In this document: positions 9,015-41,222 of the stretch, one piece after another
Numbering within the stretch: the stretch's first letter is position 1
Layout of the letters: every line of letters starts with the position of its first letter
Source: Escherichia phage N2
Reading direction: 5' to 3' (one strand)
DNA length: 64,000 nucleotides
Sequence record: ON645936.1
Translations under genes and position numbers: made by a program
The notes under the pieces: generated by a model
The model's database searches: none
The model's input: only the letters and a program-made list of their open reading frames with translations
What the model was told of the DNA's origin: nothing

Positions 9015-9044
9015 ATAATACCACAGTTTGAACTTGTTGTAAAC
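9015..9044 (-). promoter_or_regulatory. T4-type early promoter (-35 GTTTAC, 18-nt spacer, -10 TATTAT)
   Basis: minus strand reads GTTTAC-N18-TATTAT with A/T-rich upstream region. Confidence 0.5.
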
Positions 9045-9122
9045 AACTTTGTGAAATTATTTTAGGGAATGATAAGAAGTGAATGATAGTTAGAATGGTA
9101 ATATACAGAATGTGAGAAAGAA

Positions 9123-9135
9123 AGGCCCAGAGGGC
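9123..9135 (-). terminator. GC-rich stem-loop followed by U-rich tract, downstream of nrdH
   Basis: GGCCC...GGGCC palindrome then T-rich run on minus strand. Confidence 0.4.
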
Positions 9136-9140
9136 CCGTC

Positions 9141-9512
9141 TTAGTCTTCTATGATATCTCTATCATATCCAAGTGAAATGAGAGTTTCTTTGAAGTGTTT
9201 AATGTTCTTTTGTCTAGAATCATTAATGAAAATGACTGGATAACGAATGTTAAGAGATGTGAATCCAGCTCGTTTAGCAAGAGATACAATCAGTGGACGA
9301 TCATACTCAATCTTACCATTATTTGTAAGAACTTTATAGAAAGTAAAAGGAGCATTGAGCTCCTTTAGAAGTTTTGTAACTGATTGACATCCAGGACAAC
9401 GACCTACTTCATCTGGAATTCCATAGACTTCAATCTTATTCTTTAAGTTCGAGTTTTGTTCCACGAGAAATAATTCCTTGATAAGCCCAGTATGGCGGGT
9501 TAACAGAATCAT
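9141..9512 (-). CDS. nrdH: glutaredoxin-like protein NrdH
   Basis: CPGC redox motif in a glutaredoxin-like fold; sits next to nrdG as in T4; start uncertain (ATG 9512 or GTG 9464). Confidence 0.6.
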   Translation of the reverse strand: MILLTRHTGLIKELFLVEQNSNLKNKIEVYGIPDEVGRCPGCQSVTKLLKELNAPFTFYKVLTNNGKIEYDRPLIVSLAKRAGFTSLNIRYPVIFINDSRQKNIKHFKETLISLGYDRDIIED

Positions 9513-9747
9513 CGCCAGAATTTTCTTCAGGAAAATAAACCTGGATAACAAATCCAGATGCATCAAAGGTAAAATAAACCGTAGGCAGTTCACCTAACAA
9601 TTCAGCACGAGCATTAATTTCTTCGAGATCTCGTTCACGTCCAGCCCAAAAACTAGGATTTAGACTACATTCATAGAAATAATAGTCATTACCAAACATA
9701 TCAAACCCCTTCCAACTCTCTACCACATACTGCTCAAAACTAATCAT
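9436..9747 (-). CDS. hypothetical protein
   Basis: 103-aa ORF. Confidence 0.45.
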   Translation of the reverse strand: MISFEQYVVESWKGFDMFGNDYYFYECSLNPSFWAGRERDLEEINARAELLGELPTVYFTFDASGFVIQVYFPEENSGDDSVNPPYWAYQGIISRGTKLELKE

Positions 9748-9749
9748 AA

Positions 9750-9989
9750 TTAAGCCTTTTTATCAAGAACAGCATTAAGCTTGTTAGTAATTTTATCCAG
9801 ACGCTCATTGAACTCGCTAGAAGATAAGCCTTTTTCTGGAGAAATTAAGCTAATTACGAAAAATATAGCAATAAAAGGAATAAGAAAAATAGCACCAACT
9901 GCCATAAACAAAAAGAACGTTACAGTTGTAAGAAAATCAGCTAAACCTTTACGAAATTTATACATATTTACCCTTAATTGATTAACCAA
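9750..9989 (-). CDS. hypothetical small membrane protein
   Basis: 79 aa with one long hydrophobic segment (TVTFFLFMAVGAIFLIPFIAIFFVISLI). Confidence 0.45.
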   Translation of the reverse strand: MVNQLRVNMYKFRKGLADFLTTVTFFLFMAVGAIFLIPFIAIFFVISLISPEKGLSSSEFNERLDKITNKLNAVLDKKA

Positions 9990-10079
9990 GCATTGATAAG
10001 TACTAAACTATACTGCGAATAAAATTCTGGACCAAAATGAAAAATCATATCATTTATAGTATCAATAATATAATTCAGT

Positions 10080-10571
10080 TTAATCATGTTTCCACACCCC
10101 ATCGGTATTTGACCAAAGTCGCTGATTATCTGAACCTCGCCACAGCTTTTTGGTTGGAAGATTTTTCTCATACTTCCCATCAATAATAACATCAACATAT
10201 TTAAGCATTTCTAGTTGTTTAATATCTTCAAACTTGTACCCTGTCCACAACCAAATGCTTTTATTTGGATAAAGATTTTTTACAGTTTGAACAATGCAAT
10301 GAACATCATCTCGGTTATCAGGATAAAGAGGGTCACCTCCAGTTATAGTTAATCCTTCTATATAATCATTATTCAAACATTCAATTAATTGTTCTAGTGT
10401 TTCACCAGTAAATGGAACGCCATTTCTAGCATTCCATGTTGATTTATTATAACACCCTTCGCATTTATGCAAACAACCTGTAACGAAAAGAACTGTCCTG
10501 CATCCAGGACCATTAACAAAGCAGCACGGGTATATTCTGTCATAATTCATAATAATATCCAATTTTTCCAA
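10080..10571 (-). CDS. nrdG: anaerobic ribonucleotide reductase activating protein NrdG (radical SAM)
   Basis: CLHKCEGC radical-SAM cysteine cluster; adjacent to nrdD. Confidence 0.85.
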   Translation of the reverse strand: MEKLDIIMNYDRIYPCCFVNGPGCRTVLFVTGCLHKCEGCYNKSTWNARNGVPFTGETLEQLIECLNNDYIEGLTITGGDPLYPDNRDDVHCIVQTVKNLYPNKSIWLWTGYKFEDIKQLEMLKYVDVIIDGKYEKNLPTKKLWRGSDNQRLWSNTDGVWKHD

Positions 10572-11377
10572 GCTTCATCAGTAGAATTACAGCGTTTTAG
10601 TATAAGATGTCTAGAAACTTTTATGGCATTTGAGCACTTTTTAATTGAATCATATTTAATACCGTCAACTGAAACGGTTTTGCTAGTTGGAGAAATTTTT
10701 CCATACATTGGATTTTTTGAACCAACTTGAAGTCCTTTTAAAGCTTTTGAAAGCTTTTGTCTAGATTCCAATGACATGGGAGAATTCTTTTTACCTTCAA
10801 TAATTCGCTTGCGATGAAGTTCGCGTTCTTCTTCACTCAAAGAATTGTAATATTTTTTAACACCGTTTGATATAGATAATTTATCTTTCTCAGACCGCTC
10901 TCCAGCTAATTTACTTCTAACATCTTTTCGCTTCATAGCTATGCTTACGGCTTTATTTAAATTTGCTTGATGCTCTGGCGTACGTTTATATTTCTTTAAA
11001 GCACGTGAAATAGCTATTTTAGTTTCTTCTGTTCTCTTTTTACCTTTATTTGCTAAACTATTTTTGCGGCGATGTTCAAGTGTCTGTTCATAGGCAGTTC
11101 CACCTTTTCCACCAGGTTTAATATTATATGTATTTTCTTTTAGACAATACTCTTCGGTTACAAGTTCAGCTTCTTTATCATACATTTGTTTTTCATTATC
11201 AAAAACATGTAAAATTTCTTTATTAAAATTTTTTCTACCATATTTTAATAAAGCGGCACGAATCAATGTTCCTGACCCCATATAACCGTCATTTATGTTA
11301 TCGGTGCTATGCGCACCGATATATTCCTTTGAATTAATTATATTTGTTATTTTATAAATTATATAATACCTATGCAT
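10547..11377 (-). CDS. GIY-YIG homing endonuclease (Seg-like), free-standing between nrdD and nrdG
   Basis: 276 aa; YIIYKITN...KEYIG...GYMGSG GIY-YIG module; basic C-terminal DNA-binding region; overlaps both neighbours by a few nt. Confidence 0.7.
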   Translation of the reverse strand: MHRYYIIYKITNIINSKEYIGAHSTDNINDGYMGSGTLIRAALLKYGRKNFNKEILHVFDNEKQMYDKEAELVTEEYCLKENTYNIKPGGKGGTAYEQTLEHRRKNSLANKGKKRTEETKIAISRALKKYKRTPEHQANLNKAVSIAMKRKDVRSKLAGERSEKDKLSISNGVKKYYNSLSEEERELHRKRIIEGKKNSPMSLESRQKLSKALKGLQVGSKNPMYGKISPTSKTVSVDGIKYDSIKKCSNAIKVSRHLILKRCNSTDEAWKNWILL

Positions 11378-12714
11378 GTTTTACTCGTTTTACCATTTCT
11401 TTCATTTTACCTAAATTCCATGGAACAACGCTAGGAGTTCCAAGATATCCGCATGTTCTTCTTATTGTGTTCATCTTTTTAGGATCAGTTTCTCCACAAA
11501 TAGAACAAACAAATCCGTTTTCAGTAGGAGTCATTTCATGGGTACTTCCACATGTAAAACATTTATCTACTGGCATATTAACACCAAAATAATCTAAATG
11601 TTGTGCAGCATAATCCCATACAGCCTCAAGACCTTTTAGGTTATTTTTCATATCAGGAAGTTCAACATAAGAAATGTGACCACCTGTCGCAATGAAATGA
11701 TACGGGGCTTCGCGAGAAATCTTTTCAAACGGAGTAATATTTTCTTCTACTGAAACGTGGAAACTGTTAGTATACCAGCCTTTATCGGTAACATCTTTTA
11801 CACTTCCATATTTCTCAGTATCAAGTTTACAGAAGCGATAGCACAGGTTTTCAGCAGGAGTAGAATACAAACTAAAAGCAAATCCGGTTCTTTCAGTCCA
11901 CTGCTTAAGACGAGCATTCATTTTAGTTAAAATTTCTTGTCCAATATCACGACCGACAAGAATATTCAATTCGTGAATACCAATGTATCCTAAGGACACT
12001 GAACTTCTACCGTTTTTAAATAACTCAATTATATCGTCATCAGGTTTAAGACGAACCCCGAATGCACCTTCTTGGTAAAGAATAGGAGCAACAGTCGCTT
12101 TAACTCCTTTTAAGGAACTAATTCTACACATCAAAGCTTCAAAACATAAATCCATTCGTTCATTGAACAATTCGGCAAATTTCTGTTCATTGAACTGTGT
12201 TCCAATATAAGAATCTAACGCAATACGAGGAAGATTCAGTGTTACAACGCCAAGATTATTACGTCCATCAAGAATTTCATTACCAGTGGAATCTTTCCAT
12301 ACGCCCAAGAAACTACGACAACCCATTGGAGAAACAGGAATAGATGAACCTGTGATAGCTTTATTGTTCTTAGCTGAAATAATATCAGGATACATCCTTT
12401 TGCTTGCGCACTCTAAAGCAAGCTGCTTAATATCATAGTTCGGATCGTCTTTATAAAGATTAACACCCTCTTCAACGAACATAACAAGCTTAGGGAAAAT
12501 AGGAGTTATCCCATCACGACCGAGACCTTTAATACGATTTTTCAGAATTGCTTTCTGAATCATTCGTTCAGTCCAGTCAGTTCCCGTGCCAAACGTAATT
12601 GTTACAAAAGGCGTTTGTCCATTAGAGCTGAAAAGTGTATTTACTTCATCATTATATTCAGCATGAGTCGCAAATTCATGCCCGTTTATATGAAACAACA
12701 AAATTTGGATAGTC
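11370..12714 (-). CDS. nrdD: anaerobic ribonucleotide reductase NrdD, exon 2 (3' splice site approximate)
   Basis: 443-aa open frame ending at the same stop as class III RNR; upstream end of the frame runs into the intron. Confidence 0.8.
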
Positions 12715-13446
12715 CATAGATATGCAACGTTCTTTTATAGTGCTAGGATGAAAATTTAGCGCTTTAGCTGCTTCTATATAAGACGTATACTTAATACCGT
12801 CAACAACCACATATTCAGGAACTTTATGAATAGTAGTCTTAATACTCAAAACAAGAGGATGAGTTTCGACTTCACTTTCAGTGCAATTTAAATATTCCGC
12901 TGCTTTTTTAAAACTTCTAAAAGTTTTATTTTTAAGCTTTATCGATACTTGTTTTTTACTTTTTCGACTATTGATATTATTTTGCACATGTTCCTTAGAT
13001 CTTCCGTTTTTAGCATAATATTCAGCTACAGAAGATTTTATATTGTTTTTATGAGATTCGGATAACACTTTACCCTTATGAGCATCTCTTAATTTTTGAA
13101 TATGTTCTTCAGTATCCGGATGCTTATAAAACTTTTTACCGCCTATGGATTTATTTAAACATTTTTTGCTATAAAAATATTTACGTATGACCTCTTCTTC
13201 ATGTTTTAATGCATCTTTATAACTATCAAATGTTTTTAAAATTATCCATTTAGTAGGTGTATCAGTTTTTAAGCGTTCATTTATATACTTAGATGACGTT
13301 GTGTAAGTTTTCCAGTTTGTGGGCTTGTTTTTAATTGTTCTAAATTTTTTATAACCGATATAAATGTCGCCATTAGAAAACTTAACTAAGTATGTAAATG
13401 CGTCTTTATCTTTTATTTTAGTACAACGTCTTTTTATCCATTTCAT
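12676..13446 (-). CDS. intron-encoded homing endonuclease (I-TevII-like)
   Basis: 256-aa ORF inside the nrdD intron; GDIYIGY motif; T4 nrdD intron encodes I-TevII. Confidence 0.75.
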   Translation of the reverse strand: MKWIKRRCTKIKDKDAFTYLVKFSNGDIYIGYKKFRTIKNKPTNWKTYTTSSKYINERLKTDTPTKWIILKTFDSYKDALKHEEEVIRKYFYSKKCLNKSIGGKKFYKHPDTEEHIQKLRDAHKGKVLSESHKNNIKSSVAEYYAKNGRSKEHVQNNINSRKSKKQVSIKLKNKTFRSFKKAAEYLNCTESEVETHPLVLSIKTTIHKVPEYVVVDGIKYTSYIEAAKALNFHPSTIKERCISMDYPNFVVSYKRA

Positions 13447-13694
13447 TGTTTCACCTCGTATTCATAAGATAATCTTATTTATACAAGATGACTGCTGCAT
13501 GTCGCCATGCAGATTAGACTATATCTTCATCTTTCGATGCCGGCCGTTTCGAATAGCATTAGCTTCTATTCTACACCGCTACATTCATCACGGTTAGTCG
13601 TTAGGCATTTAGTTCAAAAGAACATTTAGCACGGGATTGTCTACTAGAGAGGTTCCCCGTTTAGACCGGTTTTACATGAGCCTGAATTAAATTA
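12715..13694 (-). other. group I self-splicing intron in nrdD (boundaries within a few nt)
   Basis: conserved core ACGGGGAACCUCUCUAGUAGACAAUCCCGUGCUAAAU on minus strand at 13621-13663; P1 pairing UAUGAGU(exon)/GCUCAUG(guide) at the exon 1 end; contains an endonuclease ORF. Confidence 0.8.
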
Positions 13695-14232
13695 ACTCAT
13701 ACGCCTGGAATGCATCGTATACGTCTTTTTCTGTTTTAGATTGGGCATAATTCAATGCATCTGCGATTTGCCATTTTTCCGCGTCCTCAATATGTTTTGC
13801 ATAGGTGCGTTTAACATAAGGAGAAAGTACTTTATCTACATTCGCAAAAGTCGTTCCACCATATTGATGGGAAGCAACCTGTGCAGTAATTTGTGCCATA
13901 ATTGCAGTAGCAACGCCAATTGATTTAGGAGTTTCAATTTGAGCATTGCCTAATTTAAATCCATTCTCAAGCATCCCCTTTAAATCGACTAAACAGCAAT
14001 TAGTAAATGGAAGAGCAGGGGAATAATCAATATCGTGCACGTGAATAATTCCGCTTTCATGCGCTTTCATAATAAAAGACGGGACCATATTTTTGGCAAT
14101 GTGCTTAGACACAATACCAGCCATAAGGTCCCGTTGAGTTGGAAAAACACGAGAATCTTTATTAGCATTCTCGTTTAAAAGGTCTTTATTAGTTTTATGA
14201 ATCAATCCTTCAATTTCTTTTTCAATTGTCAT
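13687..14232 (-). CDS. nrdD: anaerobic ribonucleotide reductase NrdD, exon 1 (in-frame stop at 13687 lies in the intron)
   Basis: 181-aa N-terminal segment followed directly by group I intron core. Confidence 0.8.
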   Translation of the reverse strand: MTIEKEIEGLIHKTNKDLLNENANKDSRVFPTQRDLMAGIVSKHIAKNMVPSFIMKAHESGIIHVHDIDYSPALPFTNCCLVDLKGMLENGFKLGNAQIETPKSIGVATAIMAQITAQVASHQYGGTTFANVDKVLSPYVKRTYAKHIEDAEKWQIADALNYAQSKTEKDVYDAFQAYELI

Positions 14233-15216: not shown

Positions 15217-15321
15217 TTAAGTCATTTATCGTTGGTTCATTATATACTGTTTCTTCATCAGTGTAAACCGGTTCTTCCGGCTCTGGCTCTACAGTTTCCC
15301 ATCTAACCGCCCACCAGGGTT

Positions 15322-16656: not shown

Positions 16657-17582
16657 TTCAATACCTCAATAGCATTACGTAAACCATTTGCTTTTGCATT
16701 AAGAGCTTTTAACAATTTAGTGTGTTCGGCAATCTGGGCTTCAACTTCAATCAAACGAGCATTGAGATATTCGCGTTCTTCGCTCAGGTTATCAACCTTT
16801 TCTACTTTAGGTTCTTTTACAACTGGCTTATATGTATTAGGATTCTTCAGTTTAATTAGAATGCGTGAACTGTATAACATTGAACCATTATCTTCGGTTT
16901 CGTCATACATTTCCACTACGTCCATCATCTCCACCATCGTGCAGAGTTTATAAGACAACGAACGAATAGTTTTGTTATGCTTATTAATTTCTCTAGCTGT
17001 CATGGTGCCGAGATTACGTGAGTAATAATAAGGAACCTGGATATTAATTAATACTGATGAACCACCTGGCTTGTGTGTTACTTCATCAGCAATAACCCAG
17101 TCCTTAACATGAACTGTATTTGTACGGTCATCGCCCGCAGTAAATAGTTTACGAGCATGCTTAAAAAGCATATTCACTTGGTCATTGAATTGACAAGCAA
17201 ATTTATCAGCAAATTTAGTTTCAGGAATGGTAGATAACCAATCAGCTAAATGGGTCTTTTTAACATCGTTAACAATAGTAAATTCAACCAAATCGGTTAT
17301 AGATGTCGCAGATTTAATGAAGCTCGGCTTCATAAAGTTTTTAATGTTATCACTAGCTACAGTAGAAGATAACAGACGAGAACGTTTAAACCATTGAAGC
17401 AAATTGCCTAACGAATGAGAATAAGCGTTTTGAGTATCTTTACAGATATGATTTTCCTGGCCAACATATTGAAAGAAATCACGAAGAATATTATTGATTA
17501 CTGCTCTGTGCCCAATCTGATAATTACGGTGTTTAGTAATAAGACTATCAAAATAATCAATATAATGTTTACGAGTTTTCAT
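16653..17582 (-). CDS. hypothetical protein with C-terminal coiled-coil
   Basis: 309-aa ORF. Confidence 0.5.
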   Translation of the reverse strand: MKTRKHYIDYFDSLITKHRNYQIGHRAVINNILRDFFQYVGQENHICKDTQNAYSHSLGNLLQWFKRSRLLSSTVASDNIKNFMKPSFIKSATSITDLVEFTIVNDVKKTHLADWLSTIPETKFADKFACQFNDQVNMLFKHARKLFTAGDDRTNTVHVKDWVIADEVTHKPGGSSVLINIQVPYYYSRNLGTMTAREINKHNKTIRSLSYKLCTMVEMMDVVEMYDETEDNGSMLYSSRILIKLKNPNTYKPVVKEPKVEKVDNLSEEREYLNARLIEVEAQIAEHTKLLKALNAKANGLRNAIEVLK

Positions 17583-17590
17583 GGTGTTCC

Positions 17591-18479
17591 TTAAGATTTA
17601 AGTAAATCAACAATTTTAATTAACTTTTCACGCTCAGATTTAGCTTTACTACTCAATCCAGATAGTCTGAAAATTTCATCATCATATTGTTGAATAGAAA
17701 TATTCAGCTCTTCAATTTGCTTATTAAAATAATCAATTTGTTCAGAATGTTTTTCATTACTATGAACCGGTACAGGTTTTGTAGGCAATTTAGTTGAACT
17801 GGATTCATCCGGGCGATAAATTAAAATACAACTTGAACCAATCGGACATTTAGCACCAGACACATATTCTAATGTTCCGGCTTCTTTTAAAATTTCAAAA
17901 GCTAAACAGAGATGATGCCCCATATTAACATAATCTGTAGAGCGAGCTCTGACGTAATAATCATCTCCATGAGTACTAAATTTAAAGCATTTAAGGTCTT
18001 CTGTATTATTAGTTTTAAAAATCATTTGTTTATCTAGACCTTTAGCTAATCGAGCGCCCAATGCTAATAATCGTCGTTGATTTTCCCACAAATCTGCGAT
18101 CATTTGGTCAAATGATAATTTCGGCATTAGTCGACCATAAAGGTCATATCCTTTATTATAATTGCGAAGAATTTCACTCGCGTTAATGCGAGACAACGCT
18201 CCAATTTTATTAAGGGCTTTCATGATGCGATTAGATAAAAGCATTCCAGACCCGTTTGTTCGTTGTAAATGTTTTTCTAATCCAAATCCAATATCAACTT
18301 TAAACTTATCTAAAATTTCGGCGTGAACATCTTTATCAATAACATTTAAATTTAGTACTGGGTTAAATTTATGAAAAAATTTATCTGACTCGTCGTGTTG
18401 AAGTACAGTCCATTCATTTGATTTTTTTATTAACTAAAGATTTAATTACTGCATTGACATTATTAATTGCTACTGACAT
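17591..18479 (-). pseudogene. hypothetical gene interrupted by a +1 frameshift in an A7 run (or sequencing error)
   Basis: ATG at 18479 sits 8 nt after the upstream stop and reads 21 codons to a stop; the 78 codons upstream of the 217-aa ORF are open and protein-like with no start; the frames join if the A7 tract (18422-18428) loses one A. Confidence 0.45.
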
Positions 18480-18486
18480 ATTTTCC

Positions 18487-18894: not shown

Positions 18895-18949
18895 AATAAT
18901 CTCAATTAAAAGGGCTTAGAACCATTATACCATCCTTGGTATAAAGCAG

Positions 18950-19504: not shown

Positions 19505-19535
19505 TATAGTACCACAGAGGAACAGTCTTGTAAAC
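19505..19535 (-). promoter_or_regulatory. T4-type early promoter (GTTTAC-N18-TACTATA)
   Basis: minus strand GTTTAC...TGGTACTATACAACTATCAAC motif shared with several other sites. Confidence 0.5.
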
Positions 19536-19921: not shown

Positions 19922-20641
19922 TTAGGATTCTTCTAAATGTCTTTTCTGAAAAGTTGATACCATACTACGATACGGTTCATTTGGATATCCGTGTTTTATA
20001 GCTTCCTTTGTAAATTTTCTCCATCCATATTTAGTTTCTTTCCAAAGCTCGAATAATTCATCTTCATACTGCCATATAGTTAAATGAGAACGCTTTGCAG
20101 CTTTAATTCCATTAATATGCTTTTCTTTTACTGCAGGATTGCTTAGTTTCTTTTTAATAATATTACTAACTTTTCTAACAAAAACTGGGTCCTTATATCG
20201 TTGCGAAGTTTTTATTGAAGTGTTTAATTTAGCTTCCGGCGTGGATGTAACCTCTTTCATCTTTTTCTTCATATGCTGTATATGATTAGGATTTTTCCAT
20301 AAATTTATAGAATGCTTTTTGCATTTTATCCTAGTTTCATCTGCAACCTTTCCTCCTTCACCCCCGTATGACAGGTTAACACAGTTTTTTCCATATTTCA
20401 ATTTACCTGCCATGATATATAATATTTCAGCTTGTACCATTTTATCATAATTATCAAAAACTTCTAAAACCGTTTTTGATAATATGTGGTCATTTGACAC
20501 TTTTACACGTTCTATATAATTTCCACTACCAACATACGAATCATTGATGTTATTAGTTATATGTCGACCATAATAGTATTTCTTAATACCTGTCTTTAAA
20601 TTTAATATTTCAGTTTTATAGATAGTAAAATATTTTTTCAT
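19922..20641 (-). CDS. GIY-YIG homing endonuclease (Seg-like)
   Basis: 239 aa; YFTIYKTEIL...YYGRH...YVGSG GIY-YIG-like N-terminus and basic C-terminus; 4-nt overlap with the upstream ATPase. Confidence 0.6.
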   Translation of the reverse strand: MKKYFTIYKTEILNLKTGIKKYYYGRHITNNINDSYVGSGNYIERVKVSNDHILSKTVLEVFDNYDKMVQAEILYIMAGKLKYGKNCVNLSYGGEGGKVADETRIKCKKHSINLWKNPNHIQHMKKKMKEVTSTPEAKLNTSIKTSQRYKDPVFVRKVSNIIKKKLSNPAVKEKHINGIKAAKRSHLTIWQYEDELFELWKETKYGWRKFTKEAIKHGYPNEPYRSMVSTFQKRHLEES

Positions 20642-21618
20642 TTTAATAATACCGTTTCAGCAATTTCTTCCCAATGATTTTTGTCGGTCATAATAAAGTC
20701 AGCAAGATAAAGAGCAGTACGCAGTGAAACATTGCGTAAACGATTAACATTGACTTTCATCCATGATAATGCTTTATAAGTTTCTTCATCAGAAAGACCG
20801 CGCTTTTGCATCATGTCGGTTGAAAGAATAACATCTTCAACCCTGACCATAATTTCTTCATTAGTGTGAACACCCAAATCCAAATAAACTGAGCGGGACA
20901 CTAATGCCTGTAAATGTGGAGCAAGTTTAGTACCACGGTCTAATTCGCGGTCAATGTCAACGTTTGTGATAAAAACAATCGTTCCTTTAAATTCAAACTC
21001 ACGCTCAATGCCTTTTTCTTCTAAGTAAGAAGATGCAGTGCTCCAGCAGACTTTACGGGTTTCTCCGGTGTCCAGAGCGGCTTTTAGAAGATTAAGAATG
21101 TCCATATCAGAGAAAACATCCACATCATCAATCAAAAGGACAGAATTCTCTTCACGATTATTCCAAAGCTGTTCATAAAGACCAATACCAGAGATTTTAC
21201 CATTAATGCTTTTATATTCAATGTATCCAATATCATTTGCTTTATTTAAAGCTTTATCTAAAGAATACGTTTTACCAATACCTGCTGCGCCAGAGATAAT
21301 TAATGAACGAATATTTCCATTAATAATACCGTTCGTCATCATTCCCATAACATTAAATCTTTTATTAATGCGGGTTTTCATATCTTCATATGATTCTTTA
21401 ACTTCTTCAACTTTTACACCATCATATGAAATATCTGATTTGTAAACCCAAACACCGCGACGTTTACCGTCAATTTCAACAAAAACTTTACCATCTCCTT
21501 GTGCATCTACCGGAGCATTATCTGGGAACCATTCGCCTAAGAGCTCAAAAGTTCCAGAGATTTCTTTACCAAAGTAGATACCCTTATTGATAGTTACAGT
21601 TTTCATTTTATTCTCCAA
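20638..21618 (-). CDS. AAA+/P-loop ATPase
   Basis: 326 aa; Walker A GAAGIGKT, Walker B VLLIDDVD, sensor-like TIVFITN. Confidence 0.6.
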   Translation of the reverse strand: MENKMKTVTINKGIYFGKEISGTFELLGEWFPDNAPVDAQGDGKVFVEIDGKRRGVWVYKSDISYDGVKVEEVKESYEDMKTRINKRFNVMGMMTNGIINGNIRSLIISGAAGIGKTYSLDKALNKANDIGYIEYKSINGKISGIGLYEQLWNNREENSVLLIDDVDVFSDMDILNLLKAALDTGETRKVCWSTASSYLEEKGIEREFEFKGTIVFITNVDIDRELDRGTKLAPHLQALVSRSVYLDLGVHTNEEIMVRVEDVILSTDMMQKRGLSDEETYKALSWMKVNVNRLRNVSLRTALYLADFIMTDKNHWEEIAETVLLK

Positions 21619-21642: not shown

Positions 21643-21673
21643 TATAGTACCATAAAGCTTTATGCTTGTAAAC
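21643..21673 (-). promoter_or_regulatory. T4-type early promoter
   Basis: GTTTAC-N18-TACTATA on minus strand, upstream of ATPase gene. Confidence 0.5.
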
Positions 21674-21702
21674 TGTTTTGTGAAAAAATTTTTGAAATAA
21701 AA

Positions 21703-21724
21703 AGGGGACCTTTAGGGCCCCTTT
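21703..21724 (-). terminator. GC stem-loop followed by U-tract
   Basis: GGGG...CCCC hairpin then T-run on minus strand after the 21733 gene. Confidence 0.4.
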
Positions 21725-21732
21725 GTGTTGAT

Positions 21733-22218
21733 TTATTCCATTTCTACTATATGCATGTTCTTTTTGCTATCAAAATATATGTTTTTAACTATTAACTCAG
21801 AATTAATTGGCAGTAAAAACTCTCTTTCATAATCTACCATACAAAGATTATCATAAAGCTTGTTAAGCTTATCATCGTCAGTTTGGCCAGATTCTTCAAT
21901 TGCGATTAAATTTTCTAAAATGTCAATCATGGCAGTCGAATAGTCGAAAACGTTTGCATTTTTTAACACTACTAAAACATTAGTCATATAGCGTTCTGCC
22001 GCAAACGTTTCAGCTATATGAGACTCACTGCTAAAGGAAGTTATTCTTTTAAATTTGATTCTCCTATTAACTTCAAACTTATAAGATAGCACTTCCTCTA
22101 TTGTAAGTCCTCTAAAAAGTATGTCTTTAATCTCAAGTTTGTCTTTAATGTAATCATTAACACGCTTATGATTAAAATCATTAATTTTGTTGCCAAGGCA
22201 TTGCATTAAAATATGCAT
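21733..22218 (-). CDS. candidate ADP-ribosyltransferase (R-S-E class)
   Basis: 161 aa; ordered motifs F-R-G (res ~35), S-F-S-S (~61), E-R-E-F-L-L-P (~131) match the ART signature aromatic-R / S-T-S / ExE-hydrophobic-LLP. Confidence 0.45.
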   Translation of the reverse strand: MHILMQCLGNKINDFNHKRVNDYIKDKLEIKDILFRGLTIEEVLSYKFEVNRRIKFKRITSFSSESHIAETFAAERYMTNVLVVLKNANVFDYSTAMIDILENLIAIEESGQTDDDKLNKLYDNLCMVDYEREFLLPINSELIVKNIYFDSKKNMHIVEME

Positions 22219-22264
22219 TGTATTCTCCTCAATTTTTAAAGAGCAATTAATTAACTACACATAT

Positions 22265-22294
22265 ATTATAATATGCTTTGTGATAGAAGTAAAC
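22265..22294 (-). promoter_or_regulatory. T4-type early promoter (GTTTAC-N18-TATAAT)
   Basis: canonical -35/-10 on minus strand upstream of 21733-22218. Confidence 0.55.
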
Positions 22295-22323
22295 AACTTT
22301 GTGACGTCATTTTAAACAAAAAA

Positions 22324-22341
22324 AGGGAGCCCGAAGGCTCC
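22324..22341 (-). terminator. rho-independent terminator (GGGAGCC-UUCG-GGCUCCC + U-tract)
   Basis: 7-bp GC stem, UUCG loop, followed by Ts on minus strand; directly after the 22345 stop. Confidence 0.6.
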
Positions 22342-22344
22342 CTA

Positions 22345-24904: not shown

Positions 24905-25234
24905 AATTACATACTCCTTTGAATAATATCAATAATGTTGTTCACTAGATTATAAGTAAACATTGGGTAATTATATTGAATCATCACATACACAGCAAAC
25001 AAAACTTTCATTCTCTTCTCCTTGGCAGTTGGCAAGATTACTATACCATAACCTTGCCAACTTGTAAACCATTAAATGACGTTTTCAATAAAATTCTGGA
25101 GTTTTGTGTGAGCATCAACCATGATTTTCATTTCTTCCTTTGCGAAAGCTATGCCTCTTTCCCGAGAAGAACACTCATAGTCAGAAACTGCATTAGCATA
25201 TTCTTCAATTAGCTTCATTAAAAACATCTGCTTT

Positions 25235-25829: not shown

Positions 25830-25860
25830 TATAGTACCACGGCTCAAACGAAAAGTAAAC
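25830..25860 (-). promoter_or_regulatory. T4-type early promoter
   Basis: GTTTAC-N18-TACTATA on minus strand. Confidence 0.5.
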
Positions 25861-25875: not shown

Positions 25876-25893
25876 AGTCTCCCGAAGGAGACT
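25876..25893 (-). terminator. rho-independent terminator (GUCUCC-UUCG-GGAGAC + U-tract)
   Basis: perfect stem, UUCG loop, TTTTTT downstream on minus strand. Confidence 0.55.
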
Positions 25894-26799: not shown

Positions 26800-26841
26800 A
26801 TATACCCCTTTAGTTAGATAAACCTATTTATAACTTTTACA

Positions 26842-29650: not shown

Positions 29651-29680
29651 ATTATACCACAGTCAAGAGGAAAAGTAAAC
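29651..29680 (-). promoter_or_regulatory. T4-type early promoter (GTTTAC-N18-TATAAT) upstream of regB
   Basis: canonical hexamers with 18-nt spacer on minus strand. Confidence 0.55.
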
Positions 29681-31821: not shown

Positions 31822-31892
31822 ATTTGAATGTAAATATTTTTGCCTTAATACTTATACCAGTGTGGCTTCATTAAAATTTTTTCATCGAGTCA
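31822..31892 (-). pseudogene. denV remnant (start codon fused to a diverged copy of the last ~70 nt of denV)
   Basis: minus strand ATGACTCGATGAAAAAATTTTAATGAAGCCACACTGGTATAAG... aligns with the denV start plus the denV 3' end at 32263-32335; reads M-T-R-stop. Confidence 0.5.
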
Positions 31893-31918
31893 TTTTACCT
31901 CTCTAAGTAATTATGAAT

Positions 31919-31948
31919 ATACTATCACAATTTTAGGAGAAAGTAAAC
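31919..31948 (-). promoter_or_regulatory. T4-type early promoter (GTTTAC-N18-TAGTAT); near-identical copy of the denV promoter
   Basis: sequence at 31913-31948 is ~90% identical to 32701-32737. Confidence 0.5.
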
Positions 31949-32262: not shown

Positions 32263-32679
32263 TTAAATGTAAATATTTTTACCGTAGTATTTATACCAGT
32301 ATGGTTTCATTAAAATTTTTTCGTTGAGTCGCTGTTGACTCAATTTAATAGCTGATTTGCATGGATTATAATCATTTTTCCATTCTGTTGGAATATCGCT
32401 TATGTCAGGAACTTCAGTGTCTTTTATACTGAACCCGCGTTTTAAGCATTCCATTATAATGTCTGATTGACGCTTTCGCAAAAATTCTAACTTGTCGTAA
32501 AAGAACGTAACATGACCAGAACCTAAAATAAACTCGGAAGATATTTTAAAATCTTTAACCCGCTTGCCATTTGCCACGTGTTTACGAACTATACCAAAAA
32601 CACGTGGCAATTCACGGTATTCTGCAATTAAATGTTGATCAGCAAGTTCAGATACTAAAGTCAAATTAATACGAGTCAT
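32263..32679 (-). CDS. denV: endonuclease V (pyrimidine-dimer glycosylase)
   Basis: 138 aa; [17 protein letters not shown]...WYKYYGK recognised as T4 DenV. Confidence 0.95.
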
Positions 32680-32704: not shown

Positions 32705-32734
32705 ATACTATCACAGTTCTAGGAGAAAGTAAAC
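32705..32734 (-). promoter_or_regulatory. T4-type early promoter upstream of denV
   Basis: GTTTAC-N18-TAGTAT on minus strand. Confidence 0.5.
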
Positions 32735-32738: not shown

Positions 32739-33269
<531 letters not shown>

Positions 33270-35518: not shown

Positions 35519-35539
35519 TCCTATTTACTCCAAGTAATA

Positions 35540-35553
35540 GGGGCCGAAGCCCC
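35540..35553 (-). terminator. stem-loop GGGGCUUCGGCCCC between genes
   Basis: perfect 5-bp GC stem with UUCG loop just upstream of the 35518 start. Confidence 0.4.
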
Positions 35554-35559
35554 TTATCA

Positions 35560-36195: not shown

Positions 36196-36225
36196 ATTAT
36201 ATCATGCTATTTAAGAGATGTAAAC
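36196..36225 (-). promoter_or_regulatory. T4-type early promoter (GTTTAC-N18-TATAAT)
   Basis: canonical hexamers on minus strand. Confidence 0.55.
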
Positions 36226-36727
36226 TATTTTTAATTTTACAAATTCGTTCAGCTTCTTCAACAGCGGCGGCGATAATGCTTTTAGCTATAGGAGTACTAA
36301 TACTAGTAGCTTTTACACTTAACACGATTTCTTTATCTTTACCAGGCCAACCCCACGATTTTTCACCGTGAGTGCCTTTAATTACAGCAGACACCTCAAG
36401 TGAGCATCCATTATCATATGTTTTTACATTAACAACCCAAGGGTCACTTTTCTCAATCGGTTTCTCAATCGGTTTATCCCAGTAAATATTAAGAATACGT
36501 GGGATATCAAATTTGGCAGGACAAATCTTAACCGTAAGACCTTCGCTTTCTAGCCAATTAATAAGAGGGCGTTCATACAGACGACGATGTGGGCTTGGGA
36601 TTCGACAAGCCTTATGTCCGTTGCTTGCGGCTTCACTAAGCTGTTCTAATACCTGCTTTTGCATTATTGATAAGATACTATCAAAAGATTTTTCGGAAGT
36701 TTCATTCAGTTCGGTATAAAGAGACAT
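36197..36727 (-). CDS. hypothetical protein
   Basis: 176-aa ORF. Confidence 0.45.
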   Translation of the reverse strand: MSLYTELNETSEKSFDSILSIMQKQVLEQLSEAASNGHKACRIPSPHRRLYERPLINWLESEGLTVKICPAKFDIPRILNIYWDKPIEKPIEKSDPWVVNVKTYDNGCSLEVSAVIKGTHGEKSWGWPGKDKEIVLSVKATSISTPIAKSIIAAAVEEAERICKIKNSLHLLNSMI

Positions 36728-36782
36728 AACAGTTTCCTCAAATTATAGGCTCATAATATCTCAATCATGAGCCTATGTAAAC

Positions 36783-37058
36783 TTATTTCATATTATTGAA
36801 ATATTCTTCTGCGATTTCGTCGTTATCATGGTAAACTTTAGAAGACAGTTTAACATAACCTTCTGCTGTGAACATGTTAATCACAACTTTTACAGTATAC
36901 CATTGACCATCTTCATTACCCATTACTGCGTAAGTTTCAAACATCGGATGGTCAGGACCGATGACTTTAATATCATTCACTGTACGACCGAAATCTTCTG
37001 AAACGCATTTCATAAAGAAGTTGAACAGTTCGCCGTAATTATCCATTTTATTCTCCAA
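36783..37058 (-). CDS. hypothetical protein
   Basis: 91-aa ORF downstream of promoter 37089-37119. Confidence 0.45.
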   Translation of the reverse strand: MENKMDNYGELFNFFMKCVSEDFGRTVNDIKVIGPDHPMFETYAVMGNEDGQWYTVKVVINMFTAEGYVKLSSKVYHDNDEIAEEYFNNMK

Positions 37059-37088: not shown

Positions 37089-37119
37089 TATAGTACCATG
37101 GAAGAACAGGGATGTAAAC
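37089..37119 (-). promoter_or_regulatory. T4-type early promoter
   Basis: GTTTAC-N18-TACTATA on minus strand. Confidence 0.5.
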
Positions 37120-37258
37120 CATTTTGTGAAAAAATTTTTTTAAAAGTTTTAGGGAATTCTAGGGCAGGGAGGGGCAATTAAAGGATAGGATAATATATTA
37201 TAAAGGGTAGAAACTAAATGATGCCTAGAGAGGTCCAAAAAGGCCTAGATACTAAAAA

Positions 37259-37280
37259 GCCCCAACCTTTCGGCTGGGGC
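37259..37280 (-). terminator. rho-independent terminator at the end of the tRNA/small-RNA region
   Basis: 9-bp stem GCCCCAGCC...GGUUGGGGC with GAAA loop then UUUUU on minus strand. Confidence 0.55.
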
Positions 37281-37332
37281 TAAGCCTTGCGGCAACCTTG
37301 TCGGGGTTCCACCTGCTAAGGCAAGTGTTTGT

Positions 37333-37423
37333 ACGAAACGCCGGGATTCGAACCCGGTTATTGAGCAGTTGACGCTACTCAATATTTTAAAAGGCCATAT
37401 CTCGACCATATCCGAACGTTCCG
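37333..37423 (-). ncRNA. tRNA-like structured small RNA (possible rnaC/rnaD-type stable RNA)
   Basis: canonical T-arm CCGGG-UUCGAAU-CCCGG with a 7-bp acceptor-like stem (CGGAACG/CGUUUCG) but ~91 nt and no clean anticodon arm. Confidence 0.3.
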
Positions 37424-37596
37424 TCAAAAACGCTACTCGGTTTACGGCAAAGATATTTCCTCGAATCGATAATTCGGTGCGCCGTTTCTGCTGTGATGTA
37501 AGGGGGCATTAACCGATCGTAAAGATTTGTTAACACAATTCCTTACCCAGGGAACATCAGTCCGACGACTTACCGGTAGCGACCCGGTTTCTCATT

Positions 37597-37676: not shown

Positions 37677-38342
37677 TTAAAATTTCATTTTTCGACCTTT
37701 AAACCATCCTTCTGGAATTGGGTCAGTTTTCTTAATACGTTTAGAAACTTTTTCATCTAATGAATGAATCCACATCATACCGAATTGGGAATTCTTTTCA
37801 CCTTGTTGGTGTTTATTTCTGGCGTGAGATTCTTTCATTTTATTAATAGTTTCAGGAGTATGATGCTTATTTAAAAATCTGCTATTATTTAAAAATTTTT
37901 CCCTGTATTCAGGAGTTGACCACAAGCGTTTAAATACATTTGAACCATGTTTACGATATTTTTCTTGAAGTAAAATATCATTTTTAAAACGTGACTTAAA
38001 CGATTTAGCTCCTTTTAAACTAGCGTCTTTCTTCTGATTTAGCATCTCAGGAATATTTAAATGGTCCCATCCACCTTCACCGCCAAGTTTTAAATTATAC
38101 ACATCTGGTCTATTTAAAAACTCTTCTGTGACAATATTTTTCTCGGCTTCAAGCATAGATTCTTTATCATCAAAATACTCTAATATTTCTTTAGAGAAAT
38201 TTTCTATACCATACTTGTCTTGGGCTCTTTTTAATAATTTACCAGAACCCATATATCCATCATCTAAATTTTCGGTAGAATGCACGCCAATATAAATTTT
38301 ATTATTAATTTTATTTGTTATTTTATAAGTGTAATGGAACAT
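37677..38342 (-). CDS. segB: GIY-YIG homing endonuclease SegB
   Basis: 221 aa; YTYKITNKINNKIYIGVH...GYMGSG; located inside the tRNA cluster as T4 segB. Confidence 0.85.
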   Translation of the reverse strand: MFHYTYKITNKINNKIYIGVHSTENLDDGYMGSGKLLKRAQDKYGIENFSKEILEYFDDKESMLEAEKNIVTEEFLNRPDVYNLKLGGEGGWDHLNIPEMLNQKKDASLKGAKSFKSRFKNDILLQEKYRKHGSNVFKRLWSTPEYREKFLNNSRFLNKHHTPETINKMKESHARNKHQQGEKNSQFGMMWIHSLDEKVSKRIKKTDPIPEGWFKGRKMKF

Positions 38343-38455: not shown

Positions 38456-38456
38456 T

Positions 38457-38532: not shown

Positions 38533-38539
38533 GAAATTA

Positions 38540-38626: not shown

Positions 38627-38628
38627 AG

Positions 38629-38702: not shown

Positions 38703-38712
38703 TAAATTAAAT

Positions 38713-38786
<74 letters not shown>

Positions 38787-38791
38787 AAATT

Positions 38792-38878
38792 TGGTGCGAG
38801 AAGTGGGACTCGAACCCACAAGGAAATCATTCCGCAGCATTTTAAGTGCTGTGCCTTTACCAATTTGACCATTCTCGC
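38792..38878 (-). tRNA. tRNA-Leu (UAA), long variable arm, CCA encoded
   Basis: acceptor GCGAGAA/UUCUCGC, anticodon stem-loop CAGCA-CUUAAAA-UGCUG, 87 nt. Confidence 0.8.
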
Positions 38879-38879
38879 G

Positions 38880-38952
38880 CTGGGAATAAAGGACTCGAAC
38901 CTTTGCATCCTGGAATCAAAATCCAGTGCCTTACCAACTTGGCTAATTCCCA
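38880..38952 (-). tRNA. tRNA-Gln (UUG)
   Basis: acceptor UGGGAAU/AUUCCCA, anticodon stem-loop CUGGA-UUUUGAU-UCCAG. Confidence 0.8.
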
Positions 38953-39038
38953 ATTATTAACAAAGGCTCTCAGGCAAGAACCCTTGATGATAGAGGGTAT
39001 TAATCAATGCGATATGAGTTAATAATAACAAATAATTC

Positions 39039-39554: not shown

Positions 39555-39844
39555 TTGCTCACCATGTTAATGTAAGTATATTTAATACATTCAAGACCCA
39601 AAGGATTCTTGAAAATATCATATTCAAGAGGACCTTTTTCTGTTTCAATAAAAAAATCAAAATTTACTGTGTTAAATTTACGGTCTTCCTTAACTAATTT
39701 AACCTGAGAAGATGAACGGTCAATGTAAACCTTTTCAACTTCAAAACATGATAAAATGCCATAATCATCAATCAAGGCTTTAGCCGCGTCTTGATCATAT
39801 TTATATCCATTTTCAATGGACGATACTTTCGCATAAAGAATCAT
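39539..39844 (-). CDS. hypothetical protein
   Basis: 101-aa ORF. Confidence 0.45.
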   Translation of the reverse strand: MILYAKVSSIENGYKYDQDAAKALIDDYGILSCFEVEKVYIDRSSSQVKLVKEDRKFNTVNFDFFIETEKGPLEYDIFKNPLGLECIKYTYINMVSKCIFV

Positions 39845-39846
39845 TA

Positions 39847-40257
39847 TTAACCTCTATCAACGATAGCATGAGTATGAGCATTTACAATTTGCCACCAGTC
39901 GAAACGATTGGAACCATAATCTGGTTTATTTTCATTTTCTTTAATGATATCACGTAGTTTATCTTCTGTTTCAGCATACGCAATTAAATCATCATATCCA
40001 CCGCAAGGATAATAATTATCACCTGCGAATAAAAGAAAATTTACCTTAGATGGATTTACGTAATAACAGTCTTTAGGATATTTAGTTCCTCTCCAATCAG
40101 TTACTTCAACATAACGGTAAGAAAATCCATTTTTGCTTTCAATCCAACTCCACGCTTCAAAAGGAGTATTAAAAACTTTATCAGGTATTAAATTACCTTC
40201 AAAATGAGAAGGATTTGCATAATCCCCAGCATAAACATAATATTCGTTAATACTCAT
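39847..40257 (-). CDS. hypothetical protein
   Basis: 136-aa ORF. Confidence 0.45.
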   Translation of the reverse strand: MSINEYYVYAGDYANPSHFEGNLIPDKVFNTPFEAWSWIESKNGFSYRYVEVTDWRGTKYPKDCYYVNPSKVNFLLFAGDNYYPCGGYDDLIAYAETEDKLRDIIKENENKPDYGSNRFDWWQIVNAHTHAIVDRG

Positions 40258-40482
40258 TTATTCACCTTTAGAAATTTTATCCATAACAATAGCGATTAAA
40301 CCAATTAAAAATGCTACTACAAGTGAAAACACATTTTCTGCTGTAGTCAATAATCCGCATATAAATCCAACAAACATTGAAAAACTAAATGCAGAAGCAG
40401 AAATTGCAATAGCAACATTTCGAATTAATTCACAGCGTTTCATTTTTATTCTCCTCAGTAGTTGATAGGGTAATAATATCAC
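40258..40482 (-). CDS. hypothetical small membrane protein
   Basis: 74 aa with two hydrophobic segments; downstream of promoter 40473-40502. Confidence 0.45.
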   Translation of the reverse strand: MILLPYQLLRRIKMKRCELIRNVAIAISASAFSFSMFVGFICGLLTTAENVFSLVVAFLIGLIAIVMDKISKGE

Positions 40483-40502
40483 TACCCCATCTAAAAGTAA
40501 AC
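40473..40502 (-). promoter_or_regulatory. T4-type early promoter (GTTTAC-N18-TATTAT)
   Basis: minus-strand hexamers with 18-nt spacer. Confidence 0.5.
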
Positions 40503-40514
40503 TGTTTTTATAAA

Positions 40515-40823
40515 CTATTTTATTCCGCGTGATGCAATTGTATTCTGTCGTTTAGCACCAGTTTGTTTAAAGTCATGATTGTCGATTTGATCGGTACGAG
40601 CAACTCCGAATGATGATTTAATCTTAGCTTTAGATCCTTTAGTTATAGAAATAAACATCTCGGAAGCCCCTTTCTTAAAGTCCGAAGCAATTACTTCAAC
40701 ACCGTTCTTAGCAAGTGACTTCAGAATTGCCTCCGCGTACTCATCATCAAGACTCGCTTGAGTATTAATAACGAATGTCTTTGGCGCAGCCGCTTCATTG
40801 ATAAATTCTTTAAATGTTTTCAT
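40515..40823 (-). CDS. internal-protein-like packaged protein (IPI-type) with capsid-targeting sequence
   Basis: 102 aa; N-terminus MKTFKEFINEA (CTS with I-N-E cleavage motif); basic. Confidence 0.6.
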   Translation of the reverse strand: MKTFKEFINEAAAPKTFVINTQASLDDEYAEAILKSLAKNGVEVIASDFKKGASEMFISITKGSKAKIKSSFGVARTDQIDNHDFKQTGAKRQNTIASRGIK

Positions 40824-40853
40824 TTTATTTTCCTAATTAATTTTGATGAGATA

Positions 40854-40883
40854 ATAGTACCACAACCCTATTTAAAAGTAAAC
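40854..40883 (-). promoter_or_regulatory. T4-type early promoter
   Basis: GTTTAC-N18-TACTAT on minus strand. Confidence 0.5.
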
Positions 40884-41156
40884 TCATTTTAAATAAATTG
40901 CGTATTTTTTATAACCCGCTGACTCATGACGAAGACCCTTATCATTAGCAAAACGCTCAATGTTGTTAATTTGATTCTGGTCAAGTTCAGAGATGTCAAA
41001 CACGAAAAAGTTACGTTTGTTACCAACTGTTACATAGTCAGTTAAATCAATATCATATAGGTAATTGATGTCAGCAATCAAAGTCTTGACAGCTTTGCTA
41101 ATTTTTACTTTTTCGTTAAAAGTAGCTTCATTGATAAATTCTTTAAATGTTTTCAT
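40884..41156 (-). CDS. second internal-protein-like packaged protein with capsid-targeting sequence
   Basis: ORF 40884-41168; start taken at MKTFKEFINEA to match the CTS. Confidence 0.55.
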   Translation of the reverse strand: MKTFKEFINEATFNEKVKISKAVKTLIADINYLYDIDLTDYVTVGNKRNFFVFDISELDQNQINNIERFANDKGLRHESAGYKKYAIYLK

Positions 41157-41192
41157 TTTATTCTCCAATCACCCATTTATTTTGATAGGGTA

Positions 41193-41222
41193 ATAGTATC
41201 ACAACTAAAACCCCGTGTAAAT
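41193..41222 (-). promoter_or_regulatory. T4-type early promoter (ATTTAC variant)
   Basis: ATTTAC-N18-TACTAT on minus strand. Confidence 0.4.

Follow-up and report, generated by a model that had tools for sequence, protein, structure and literature searches.

Early genes of bacteriophage T4 are transcribed from promoters composed of an UP element, a -35 hexamer, a TGn extension and a -10 hexamer (Hinton review, PMC2988021). Related elements of T4-like phages, the promoter-early stem-loops (PeSLs), were described by Arbiol et al. 2010 (PMC2839356) and Comeau et al. 2014 (PMC4122927); the latter gives the consensus TTTACW-N17-TAYWAT for the PeSL promoters of T4/PST, and T4 recombination is said to need patches of <50 bp (PMC2839356). 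Polymorphism of the internal-protein (IP) locus of T-even phages is credited to Repoila et al. 1994 in the accounts given in PMC2839356 and PMC4122927. Here we describe 17 sites that match, exactly or with one base relaxed, the motif GTTTAC-N18-TA(C/T)(T/A)AT in 64,000 nucleotides of Escherichia phage N2 (sequence record ON645936.1; this whole stretch is called the window below). Judged from their sequence, they are very probably T4-type early promoters of the very strong sigma-70 class, read by the unmodified host RNA polymerase right after infection. In addition, there is good support at 4-5 loci for their serving as homology linkers in the exchange of cassettes, which accounts for a minority of the variation encountered here. 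Feature type, consensus and shuffling hypothesis are all already known from publications.

The window belongs to a T4-like coliphage (Tequatrovirus): a 7-kb stretch of it matched ~800 phage records, mostly of Escherichia and Shigella Tequatrovirus, with phage W143 as top match at 97% identity. Apart from a dozen insertions, deletions or replacements, it runs colinear with T4 ~33.3-78 kb and has the same orientation, and its minus strand carries the early genes up to ~45 kb, where the GC skew flips and the late baseplate genes start. The initial annotation had reported at least 13 minus-strand copies of the motif between positions 9015 and 41222. A search of the window returned exactly 13 strict matches, every one on the minus strand, against a mean of 0.06 in dinucleotide-preserving shuffles of the window, none of which reached 13 (n=100). 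Twelve of the 13 lie inside the reported span, but one is found outside it at 8570-8599, and the end point 41222 belongs to an ATTTAC variant. When spacer lengths of 13-23 were scanned, 13 matches appeared at N18 and 0-1 at each other length. The spacing is truly fixed, as had been claimed, but the figure of 18 reflects the hexamer register: read as TTTACW, the -35 element is followed by the canonical 17 bp, and the motif is that of PMC4122927 shifted by one base. Relaxing one base added four sites, 25040-25069 (TATAGT), 31919-31948 and 32705-32734 (both TAGTAT) and 41193-41222 (ATTTAC), and all 17 fit the 17-bp spacer, with TTTACA or TTTACT as -35 element in a generic sigma-70 consensus scanner used alongside the specific-motif search. 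The -35 hexamer is thus GTTTAC in 16 sites and ATTTAC in one, and the strict -10 hexamer TA(C/T)(A/T)AT is present in 14 (the 13 GTTTAC sites and 41222 with TACTAT), besides TATAGT once and TAGTAT twice. A weight matrix built from the 17 sites found no further site on either strand of the window and none in shuffles. The promoter also emerged from an unbiased repeat search as the top direct-repeat family of the region (D1, 7 copies; D2, 4 copies; 62-80% identity). The early-gene block contains all of the sites, between 8.5 and 41.2 kb, and the late-gene half is free of them. They are named by their upper coordinate (e.g. 21673 for 21644..21673) and are, along the window:

8570..8599, minus strand: motif GTTTAC-N18-TATAAT in a gp55.5-like open reading frame (ORF), 61 nt upstream of the 55.4-like start; without TGn and extended consensus; T4 41261.
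9015..9044, minus strand: predicted early promoter in the 156-nt nrdH/55.6 gap, with TGn and the TTTCACAAAGTT UP-proximal block; T4 41708.
15239..15268, minus strand: match limited to the hexamers, upstream of pin and within the 49.1 ORF; weakest of the candidates; T4 47452.
19506..19535, minus strand: predicted early promoter upstream of nrdC.8, with an exact downstream block; T4 53943.
21644..21673, minus strand: predicted nrdC.10 early promoter; downstream block exact; an annotated promoter of the T4 ndd region is near-identical to it; T4 55383.
22265..22294, minus strand: predicted early promoter of an inserted ART-like cassette; absent from T4, RB51 and phage 132.
25040..25069, minus strand: predicted early promoter variant upstream of mobD.2, with -10 TATAGT and TGn; T4 57990.
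25831..25860, minus strand: predicted early promoter located between a UUCG terminator and mobD.5; T4 58781.
29651..29680, minus strand: regB early promoter; T4 62797.
31919..31948, minus strand: denV-type promoter copy with -10 TAGTAT, followed by a denV remnant (ATGACTCG and the last ~70 nt); repeats D5 and D6.
32705..32734, minus strand: predicted denV promoter with -10 TAGTAT and TGn; 67-nt repeat with 31948 at >=85% identity; T4 66498.
36196..36225, minus strand: predicted e.6 early promoter; three distinct breakpoint edges within or beside it.
36753..36782, minus strand: predicted early promoter of the swapped ORF 36197-36727, without TGn; three breakpoint edges; T4 70359.
37090..37119, minus strand: predicted e.8 early promoter; downstream block, leader and Shine-Dalgarno (SD) sequence present as a near-copy; T4 70695.
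40473..40502, minus strand: predicted trna.4 early promoter at the edge of the IP locus; repeat D2.
40854..40883, minus strand: predicted early promoter between two internal-head-protein genes; strict motif match.
41193..41222, minus strand: predicted early promoter of variant sequence (ATTTAC), upstream of the second of the internal-protein genes; T4 73939 has GTTTAC.

The proposal of the initial annotation that these are early promoters is strongly supported by the match to the published T4 consensus, the orthology of 13 of the 17 sites, the strong constraint on the hexamers and the absolute strand bias. Positional T4 orthologs exist for 13 sites. Those outside this number are 22294, 36225 and 40883, located in cassettes absent from T4, and the duplicated pair 31948/32734 counted once, of which 31948 has a T4 variant only; all four have orthologs in other relatives, e.g. 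T2, RB51, W143 and phage 132. The hexamers are kept in nearly all orthologs. In 78 distinct orthologous promoter sequences, which are related by descent and do not count as independent events, mismatches affect 6/936 hexamer positions versus 76/1170 spacer positions and 4-7% of the flanks (Fisher p=5e-14), corresponding to hexamers ~10-fold more conserved than the spacer. Among the very few hexamer changes is that of T2 (escape-mutant record), where the ortholog of the denV/e upstream promoter at ~26764 reads GTCTAC instead of GTTTAC. A TGn extended -10 is present in 13/17 sites, and its TG is invariant among orthologs. The 24 nt upstream, as potential UP region, contain 77% A+T compared with 65% in the background (p=2e-6), and the block TTTCACAAAGTT recurs just upstream of the -35 hexamer. 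The first gene starts 25-61 nt past the -10 hexamer, with an SD sequence and an ATG found there at 16/17 sites. In ~75 loci from numerous T4-like genera, each locus has 0-15 strict matches, all of them on the sense strand of the early genes and none antisense.

Independent descriptions of T4 point in the same direction. Promoter features are absent from the T4 RefSeq and GenBank records, and the separate T4 GenBank record X75802 contains two promoters annotated by its depositors with -35 GTTTACA, 17 nt and -10 TACTAT, one of which, in the ndd region, is near-identical to site 21673. The regB promoter, site 29680, is called "a typical early promoter" in T4 (PMC3014915) and has a T4 ortholog at 62797 that is 99% identical. 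The direct observations concern motif statistics, T4 orthology, evolutionary constraint, strand and position, association with RegB sites and cassette boundaries; from these we infer that transcription in this phage probably starts at the sites. Several points weigh against this assignment. Besides the shared descent of the ortholog counts, leave-one-out matrix scores of -6.4 for 15268, 4.4 for 36782 and 11.6 for 8599 indicate little beyond the hexamers at these three sites. Two of them, 15268 and 8599, lie within ORFs, where conservation could reflect coding constraint. Moreover, the literature searched yielded no genome-wide map of T4 start sites.

Two other identities were considered for the motif. 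The sites might be late promoters or MotA/AsiA-dependent middle promoters, about half of the middle class also carrying TGn and a sigma-70-type -10 (PMC2988021); the sites, however, have GTTTAC at -35, no TGCTT MotA box at -30 and no TATAAATA, and the predicted T4 start sites coincide with none in Hinton's list of mapped middle promoters. TGCTT motifs in separate gaps do match the middle promoters PnrdC.7 (53325) and PtRNA (72593). This identity is highly improbable and effectively refuted, since the sites carry GTTTAC in place of the MotA box (a/t)(a/t)TGCTT(t/c)a centred at -30 and the start sites do not coincide. If the motif arose by chance, from the A+T-rich composition of the genome or as a side effect of coding, it would agree with the generic sigma-70 scan, an uninformative one with match counts at chance level (86 vs 86.5 expected and 76 vs 71.2 expected), and with the two sites inside ORFs. 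Against it stand the 13 specific matches where 0.06 are expected, the fixed spacing, the strand bias held across many genera, the intergenic location of 15/17 sites and the conservation of hexamers next to variable spacers. For the set as a whole such an origin is scarcely credible and is refuted; it is possible for 15268 and 8599 individually. Motifs of the middle and late classes lie elsewhere in the window: TGCTT-N14-TATAAT/TATTAT motifs at 18895-18949 and 38953-39038 correspond to the mapped T4 middle promoters PnrdC.7 and PtRNA, and late TATAAATA motifs lie in the gaps 26800-26841, 33234-33269 and 44621-44700.

Downstream of the promoters, the initial annotation had noted a conserved block followed by a strong SD sequence. 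Exact copies of the block TGGTACTATACAACTATCAAC occur at two sites (19494 and 21632) and copies with 3 mismatches at two more; a weaker CTATCAA consensus is more widespread. Comparison of 21673 with the promoter of the distant ndd region of T4 revealed a common UP-proximal block and then, after differing spacers, ~50 nt from TGGTACTAT via the leader and GGAGAATAAAATG to the first codons with one mismatch. Because of this extended similarity of copies within a subfamily, and because the 15 nt past the -10 hexamer are the least conserved segment among orthologs (7.4% mismatches), we read the block as a probable subfamily signature of copied cassettes combined with a moderate CTATCAA consensus, rather than as a strongly constrained element. 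The SD sequence is indeed strong: GGAG within 20 nt of the start codon occurs in 11/16 promoter-proximal genes versus 10/78 others (p=1.2e-5). This sequence is related to the strong RegB/S1 cleavage sites in early-gene initiation regions, which have the consensus GG*AGRAYARAA (Uzan and Miller, PMC3014915). The window contains four perfect matches, all GGAGAATAAAA, each representing the SD sequence of the first gene past 21673, 37119, 40502 or 41222:

21606..21616, minus strand: RegB/S1 consensus GGAGAATAAAA, SD sequence of nrdC.10; the same sequence recurs at 37046-37056, 40444-40454 and 41156-41166.

One-mismatch matches follow sites 22294, 25069, 29680 (the SD sequence of regB itself) and 40883. 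The cassette SD sequence is accordingly a predicted RegB target, and cleavage by RegB would be expected in this phage. The unit of promoter, short leader and RegB-cleavable SD sequence is known T4 biology.

The stem-loop component is less regular. The following hairpins were found next to sites:

22324..22343, minus strand: intrinsic terminator with a cUUCGg tetraloop that follows nrdC.11 and precedes the -35 hexamer of 22294 by 29 nt.
25876..25893, minus strand: terminator with a cUUCGg tetraloop, preceding the -35 hexamer of 25860 by 15 nt.
21705..21721, minus strand: terminator-like hairpin with a CUAAA loop, upstream of 21673 and at the 3' end of the ART-like cassette.
9123..9137, minus strand: terminator-like hairpin with loop UCU, 73 nt upstream of 9044.
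37258..37281, minus strand: terminator with a GAAA tetraloop that follows the rnaC/tRNA cluster and precedes 37119 by 140 nt.

A terminator-like hairpin (G+C-rich stem and T-run) is located within 100 nt of four sites, with one more at 140 nt, and is absent at 12. The view that many sites are preceded by UUCG or GNRA hairpins is overstated: a UUCG hairpin adjoins two sites and any terminator hairpin 4-5/17, and the best hairpin in the 100 nt upstream of the sites does not differ from that at random minus-strand positions (median -7.3 vs -7.0 kcal/mol, p=0.15). UUCG hairpins are a general intercistronic feature of T4. The window contains six cUUCGg hairpins, all on the sense strand and none on the other, and four of these, at 4524-4543, 5794-5813, 8162-8177 and 35539-35554, have no adjoining early promoter; therefore, the UUCG hairpin is here, too, a general intercistronic feature and no regular partner of the promoter. 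Two of the promoter-free hairpins bracket the alpha-glucosyltransferase gene. The GAAA terminator at 37258-37281 marks where at least 5 relatives carry an insertion of 0.5-1.2 kb flanked by duplicate copies of the hairpin (22-36 nt); this is a stem-loop-mediated event without a promoter; near this terminator, the RB51 annotation records an ORF "flanked by 34 bp imperfect direct repeat".

The proposed shuffling role of the sites is best documented between nrdC.11 and nrdC.10. In T4 and RB51 this junction consists of a UUCG hairpin, a T-run/UP element and the nrdC.10 promoter, and the window and T2 contain an extra module of promoter core, leader, a 161-aa ORF and a second hairpin. Alignment of filled and empty sites shows that the module is joined via ~40 nt of common sequence (T-run, TTTTTTCACAAA and GTTTAC):

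21700..22300, minus strand: mobile island of promoter core, leader, ART-like ORF (21733-22218) and hairpin, with the ~40-nt linker T-run/TTTTTTCACAAA/GTTTAC.

In the Citrobacter phages CF1 and Moon (Moonvirus) and a third genome, the DNA is mostly 50-85% identical to the window across nrdC.11/nrdC.10, whereas identity rises to 88-98% over ~600 nt from the promoter at ~22300 to the end of the ORF or the hairpin at ~21700-21760 (~9000-9900 in the compared sequences). The cargo protein is 92.5% identical, compared with 67% and 76-77% for the products of the flanking genes, and Merlin (Moonvirus) lacks the cargo ORF. The island represents a horizontal transfer of a promoter-plus-gene cassette. Relatives annotate this ORF as "RNA polymerase ADP-ribosylase", a doubtful name because no Pfam family is found for it and the PHROG match is partial, covering profile positions 1275-1424 of 1480 in phrog_832; a Pfam search with the five swapped cargo genes likewise returned no family.

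Three further loci fit this pattern. ORF 36197-36727 replaces T4 e.7; at each of the promoters on its two sides, three distinct endpoints from different lineages lie close together. The 57B-proximal internal-protein locus contains two internal head protein genes (assigned by PHROGs), each with its own promoter and sharing a 42-nt leader/N-terminal repeat of 98% identity (repeat D4); three of the promoter-bracketed variable genes encode internal head proteins. Homologs of the internal head protein 40515-40823 (50% aa identity) were noticed in IMG/VR T4-like contigs (~440-2030) between denV and vs.8. This is the position of the other IP locus and is consistent with movement of IP genes between loci. 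The denV/ipII locus has been rearranged, as seen from a promoter duplication of 67 nt and a remnant of denV. The relic at the T4 position of denV (31823-31948) comprises the promoter copy, ATGACTCG and the last ~70 nt of denV (D5 87%, D6 89%); the intact denV (32263-32679), ~75% identical to that of T4, adjoins gene e as in RB51, and ipIII is absent.

How far such events depend on the promoters was assessed with a panel of 10 relatives (T4, T2, RB51, W143, phage 132 and five genomes from IMG/VR, where few close relatives were found) by chaining colinear matches. Among single genes bracketed by promoters on both sides, 4/5 are absent or replaced in at least one relative, versus 20/77 others (p=0.024), but enrichment at promoter junctions was not significant. 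Of 71 distinct breakpoint edges, 15 lie within 30 nt of a promoter core, where 2.9 are expected from random positions and 11.0 from random gene junctions (p=0.13); breakpoints therefore favour gene boundaries generally, with a weak extra contribution of promoter junctions in this panel. Likewise, 10/15 promoter junctions carry a breakpoint edge versus 29/66 others (p=0.096), and the median pair of promoter copies shares an 8-nt exact run, in most pairs essentially the hexamers alone. These three results count against a shuffling role. Contrary to the initial annotation, the copies are not near-identical, as seen from the 62-80% identity of the repeat family; homology in the best pairs extends over 20-67 nt (27-67 nt at >=85% identity), the top values at this identity being 67, 37, 34 and 32 nt.

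Such figures leave room for the promoters being passengers rather than drivers. Acquired accessory genes would then survive, like morons, only with an early promoter and sometimes a terminator of their own, and recombination would proceed by illegitimate or micro-homology events or by homing endonucleases. The preference of breakpoints for gene boundaries in general and the very short homology of most copies are what one would expect, as is the cross-genus island, which carries its own promoter. In addition, 20/24 variable genes are not bracketed by promoters, and many events involve seg/mob endonucleases, the intron or 13-30-nt non-promoter repeats. Other data oppose this explanation: the filled and empty nrdC.11/nrdC.10 sites share the ~40-nt linker of T-run, UP element and -35 hexamer exactly at the junction, different lineages show 2-3 distinct breakpoint edges within 30 nt of each of the promoters 36225, 36782, 31948, 32734 and 40502, and PeSL mini-circles have been demonstrated experimentally in RB49/phi1 (PMC2839356). 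On balance we regard a pure passenger role as possible but rather doubtful. The parallel drawn in the initial annotation with the PeSL gene-shuffling cassettes is apt for a subset of 4-5 loci, but stem-loops accompany 4-5/17 promoters and most variable genes are unbracketed. Nor do the sites flank nearly every gene of the nrdC-rI and tRNA-57B blocks, as had been stated; there are 5 promoters for ~20 genes in the former and 3 for 7 genes in the latter, i.e. ~one per 2-5 genes, and many intergenic gaps of ~59-60 nt correspond to one promoter directly after the stop codon.

Much of the other variation involves homing endonucleases of the seg/mob type, I-TevII with the nrdD intron, and short repeats outside promoters. 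Homing-endonuclease genes present or absent among relatives are located at 10547-11377, 12649-13697, 19922-20641 and 37677-38342 (seg-like ORFs, I-TevII in the nrdD intron and segB) and explain a large share of the promoter-unlinked differences in gene content. At 17571-17589, all 9 relatives assessed have ~2.1 kb more (nrdC.4 and nrdC.5); this deletion, specific to the window, is bounded by 19-nt repeats that lie where translation of nrdC.3 and nrdC.5 is initiated, not at a promoter. The adjacent nrdC.6 looks disrupted, as its ORF encodes 217 aa (17591-18244) compared with 275-296 aa in T4 and RB51 (region 17591-18486); the expected frame has in-frame stops in the first ~17 codons and a 240-nt stretch without an ORF, which might reflect a pseudogene or a sequencing frameshift. 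In an Rfam search of the window, 8 tRNAs were the only matches, none covering the cassettes. At 37331-37424, ARAGORN calls a 94-nt "tRNA-Lys (ttt)" for which the Rfam tRNA model gives no call; it corresponds in position to T4 rnaC (species 1 RNA), a tRNA-like stable RNA.

Returning to the early-promoter assignment, we propose the following scenario. Each site, built from an A/T-rich UP element, the -35 element G-TTTAC(A/T), a 17-bp spacer, usually TGn and the -10 hexamer TA(C/T)(A/T)AT, would be read by the unmodified host sigma-70 RNA polymerase immediately after infection and would head a short early transcription unit, whose first gene begins 25-61 nt past the -10 hexamer. The SD sequence of this gene, typically GGAG and at four sites the full GGAGAATAAAA, presumably serves as target of the phage endoribonuclease RegB, and its cleavage would turn an expression burst into shut-off, a programmed inactivation. 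At a minority of sites, an upstream intrinsic terminator might end the preceding unit, its U-tract doubling as UP element of the next promoter. As a secondary effect, the T-run/UP/-35 segment on one side and the leader, SD sequence and first codons on the other probably act as short homology patches, via which a few promoter-plus-gene cassettes (the ART-like ORF, ORF 36197-36727, the internal-protein genes and denV/ipII) have probably been inserted, replaced or transferred. This patch role is the published PeSL idea and fits a subset of the sites only.

An early promoter class of this kind lets the phage capture the host RNA polymerase. As annotation, the sites provide 17 predicted early transcription starts for this phage, and they reveal accessory genes such as those of the internal proteins, the ART-like gene and several ORFans as independent early units. 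The quantitative checks advise caution: promoter-linked exchange explains a minority of the gene-content variation, and the stem-loop partner is the exception, not the rule. A more far-reaching speculation, unlikely in our opinion, is that the linker of terminator U-tract, UP element and -35 hexamer (T-run, TTTTTTCACAAA, GTTTAC), together with the leader and RegB-type SD sequence, might be a dedicated, selected exchange site by which self-contained units move between T4-like genera. This would amount to an integrase-free, integron-like cassette system, exemplified by the ~600-nt island shared with CF1 and Moon; a selected exchange site has already been proposed for PeSLs, and the idea, even if true, would be an extension rather than a discovery.

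Among known systems, the T4 early promoters agree with the window sites in the -35 hexamer GTTTAC(A/T), the 17-bp spacer, TGn, the -10 hexamer and the A/T-rich UP element, and nothing of substance separates them, although 22294, 36225 and 40883 have no counterpart in T4, 31948 has a variant one and three sites in the window are hexamer-only. The described RegB/S1 targets (PMC3014915) have their counterpart in the four perfect matches, all of which are first-gene SD sequences after early promoters; a difference is that 5/16 promoter-proximal genes of the window lack GGAG. With the PeSLs the sites share an identical T4/PST promoter consensus, the location in hyperplastic early regions beside small genes of unknown function, the flanking of some indels and replacements and, in one insertion, the junction via a hairpin-promoter linker. 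They differ from them in that a stem-loop adjoins just 4-5/17 promoters, the copies are 62-80% identical and breakpoint enrichment over other gene junctions is not significant in the 10-genome panel. Like morons and integron-like cassettes, the unit in the window is a single accessory gene with its own promoter, and sometimes a terminator, placed between resident genes; in contrast to integron-like cassettes it has no integrase or attC-type site, is inserted in the orientation of its neighbours and uses the promoter/terminator linker as junction. Finally, with its bracketed IP genes, the D4 repeat and the homologs in the other IP locus, the window presents another instance of T-even IP-locus polymorphism and corresponds to it without any difference.

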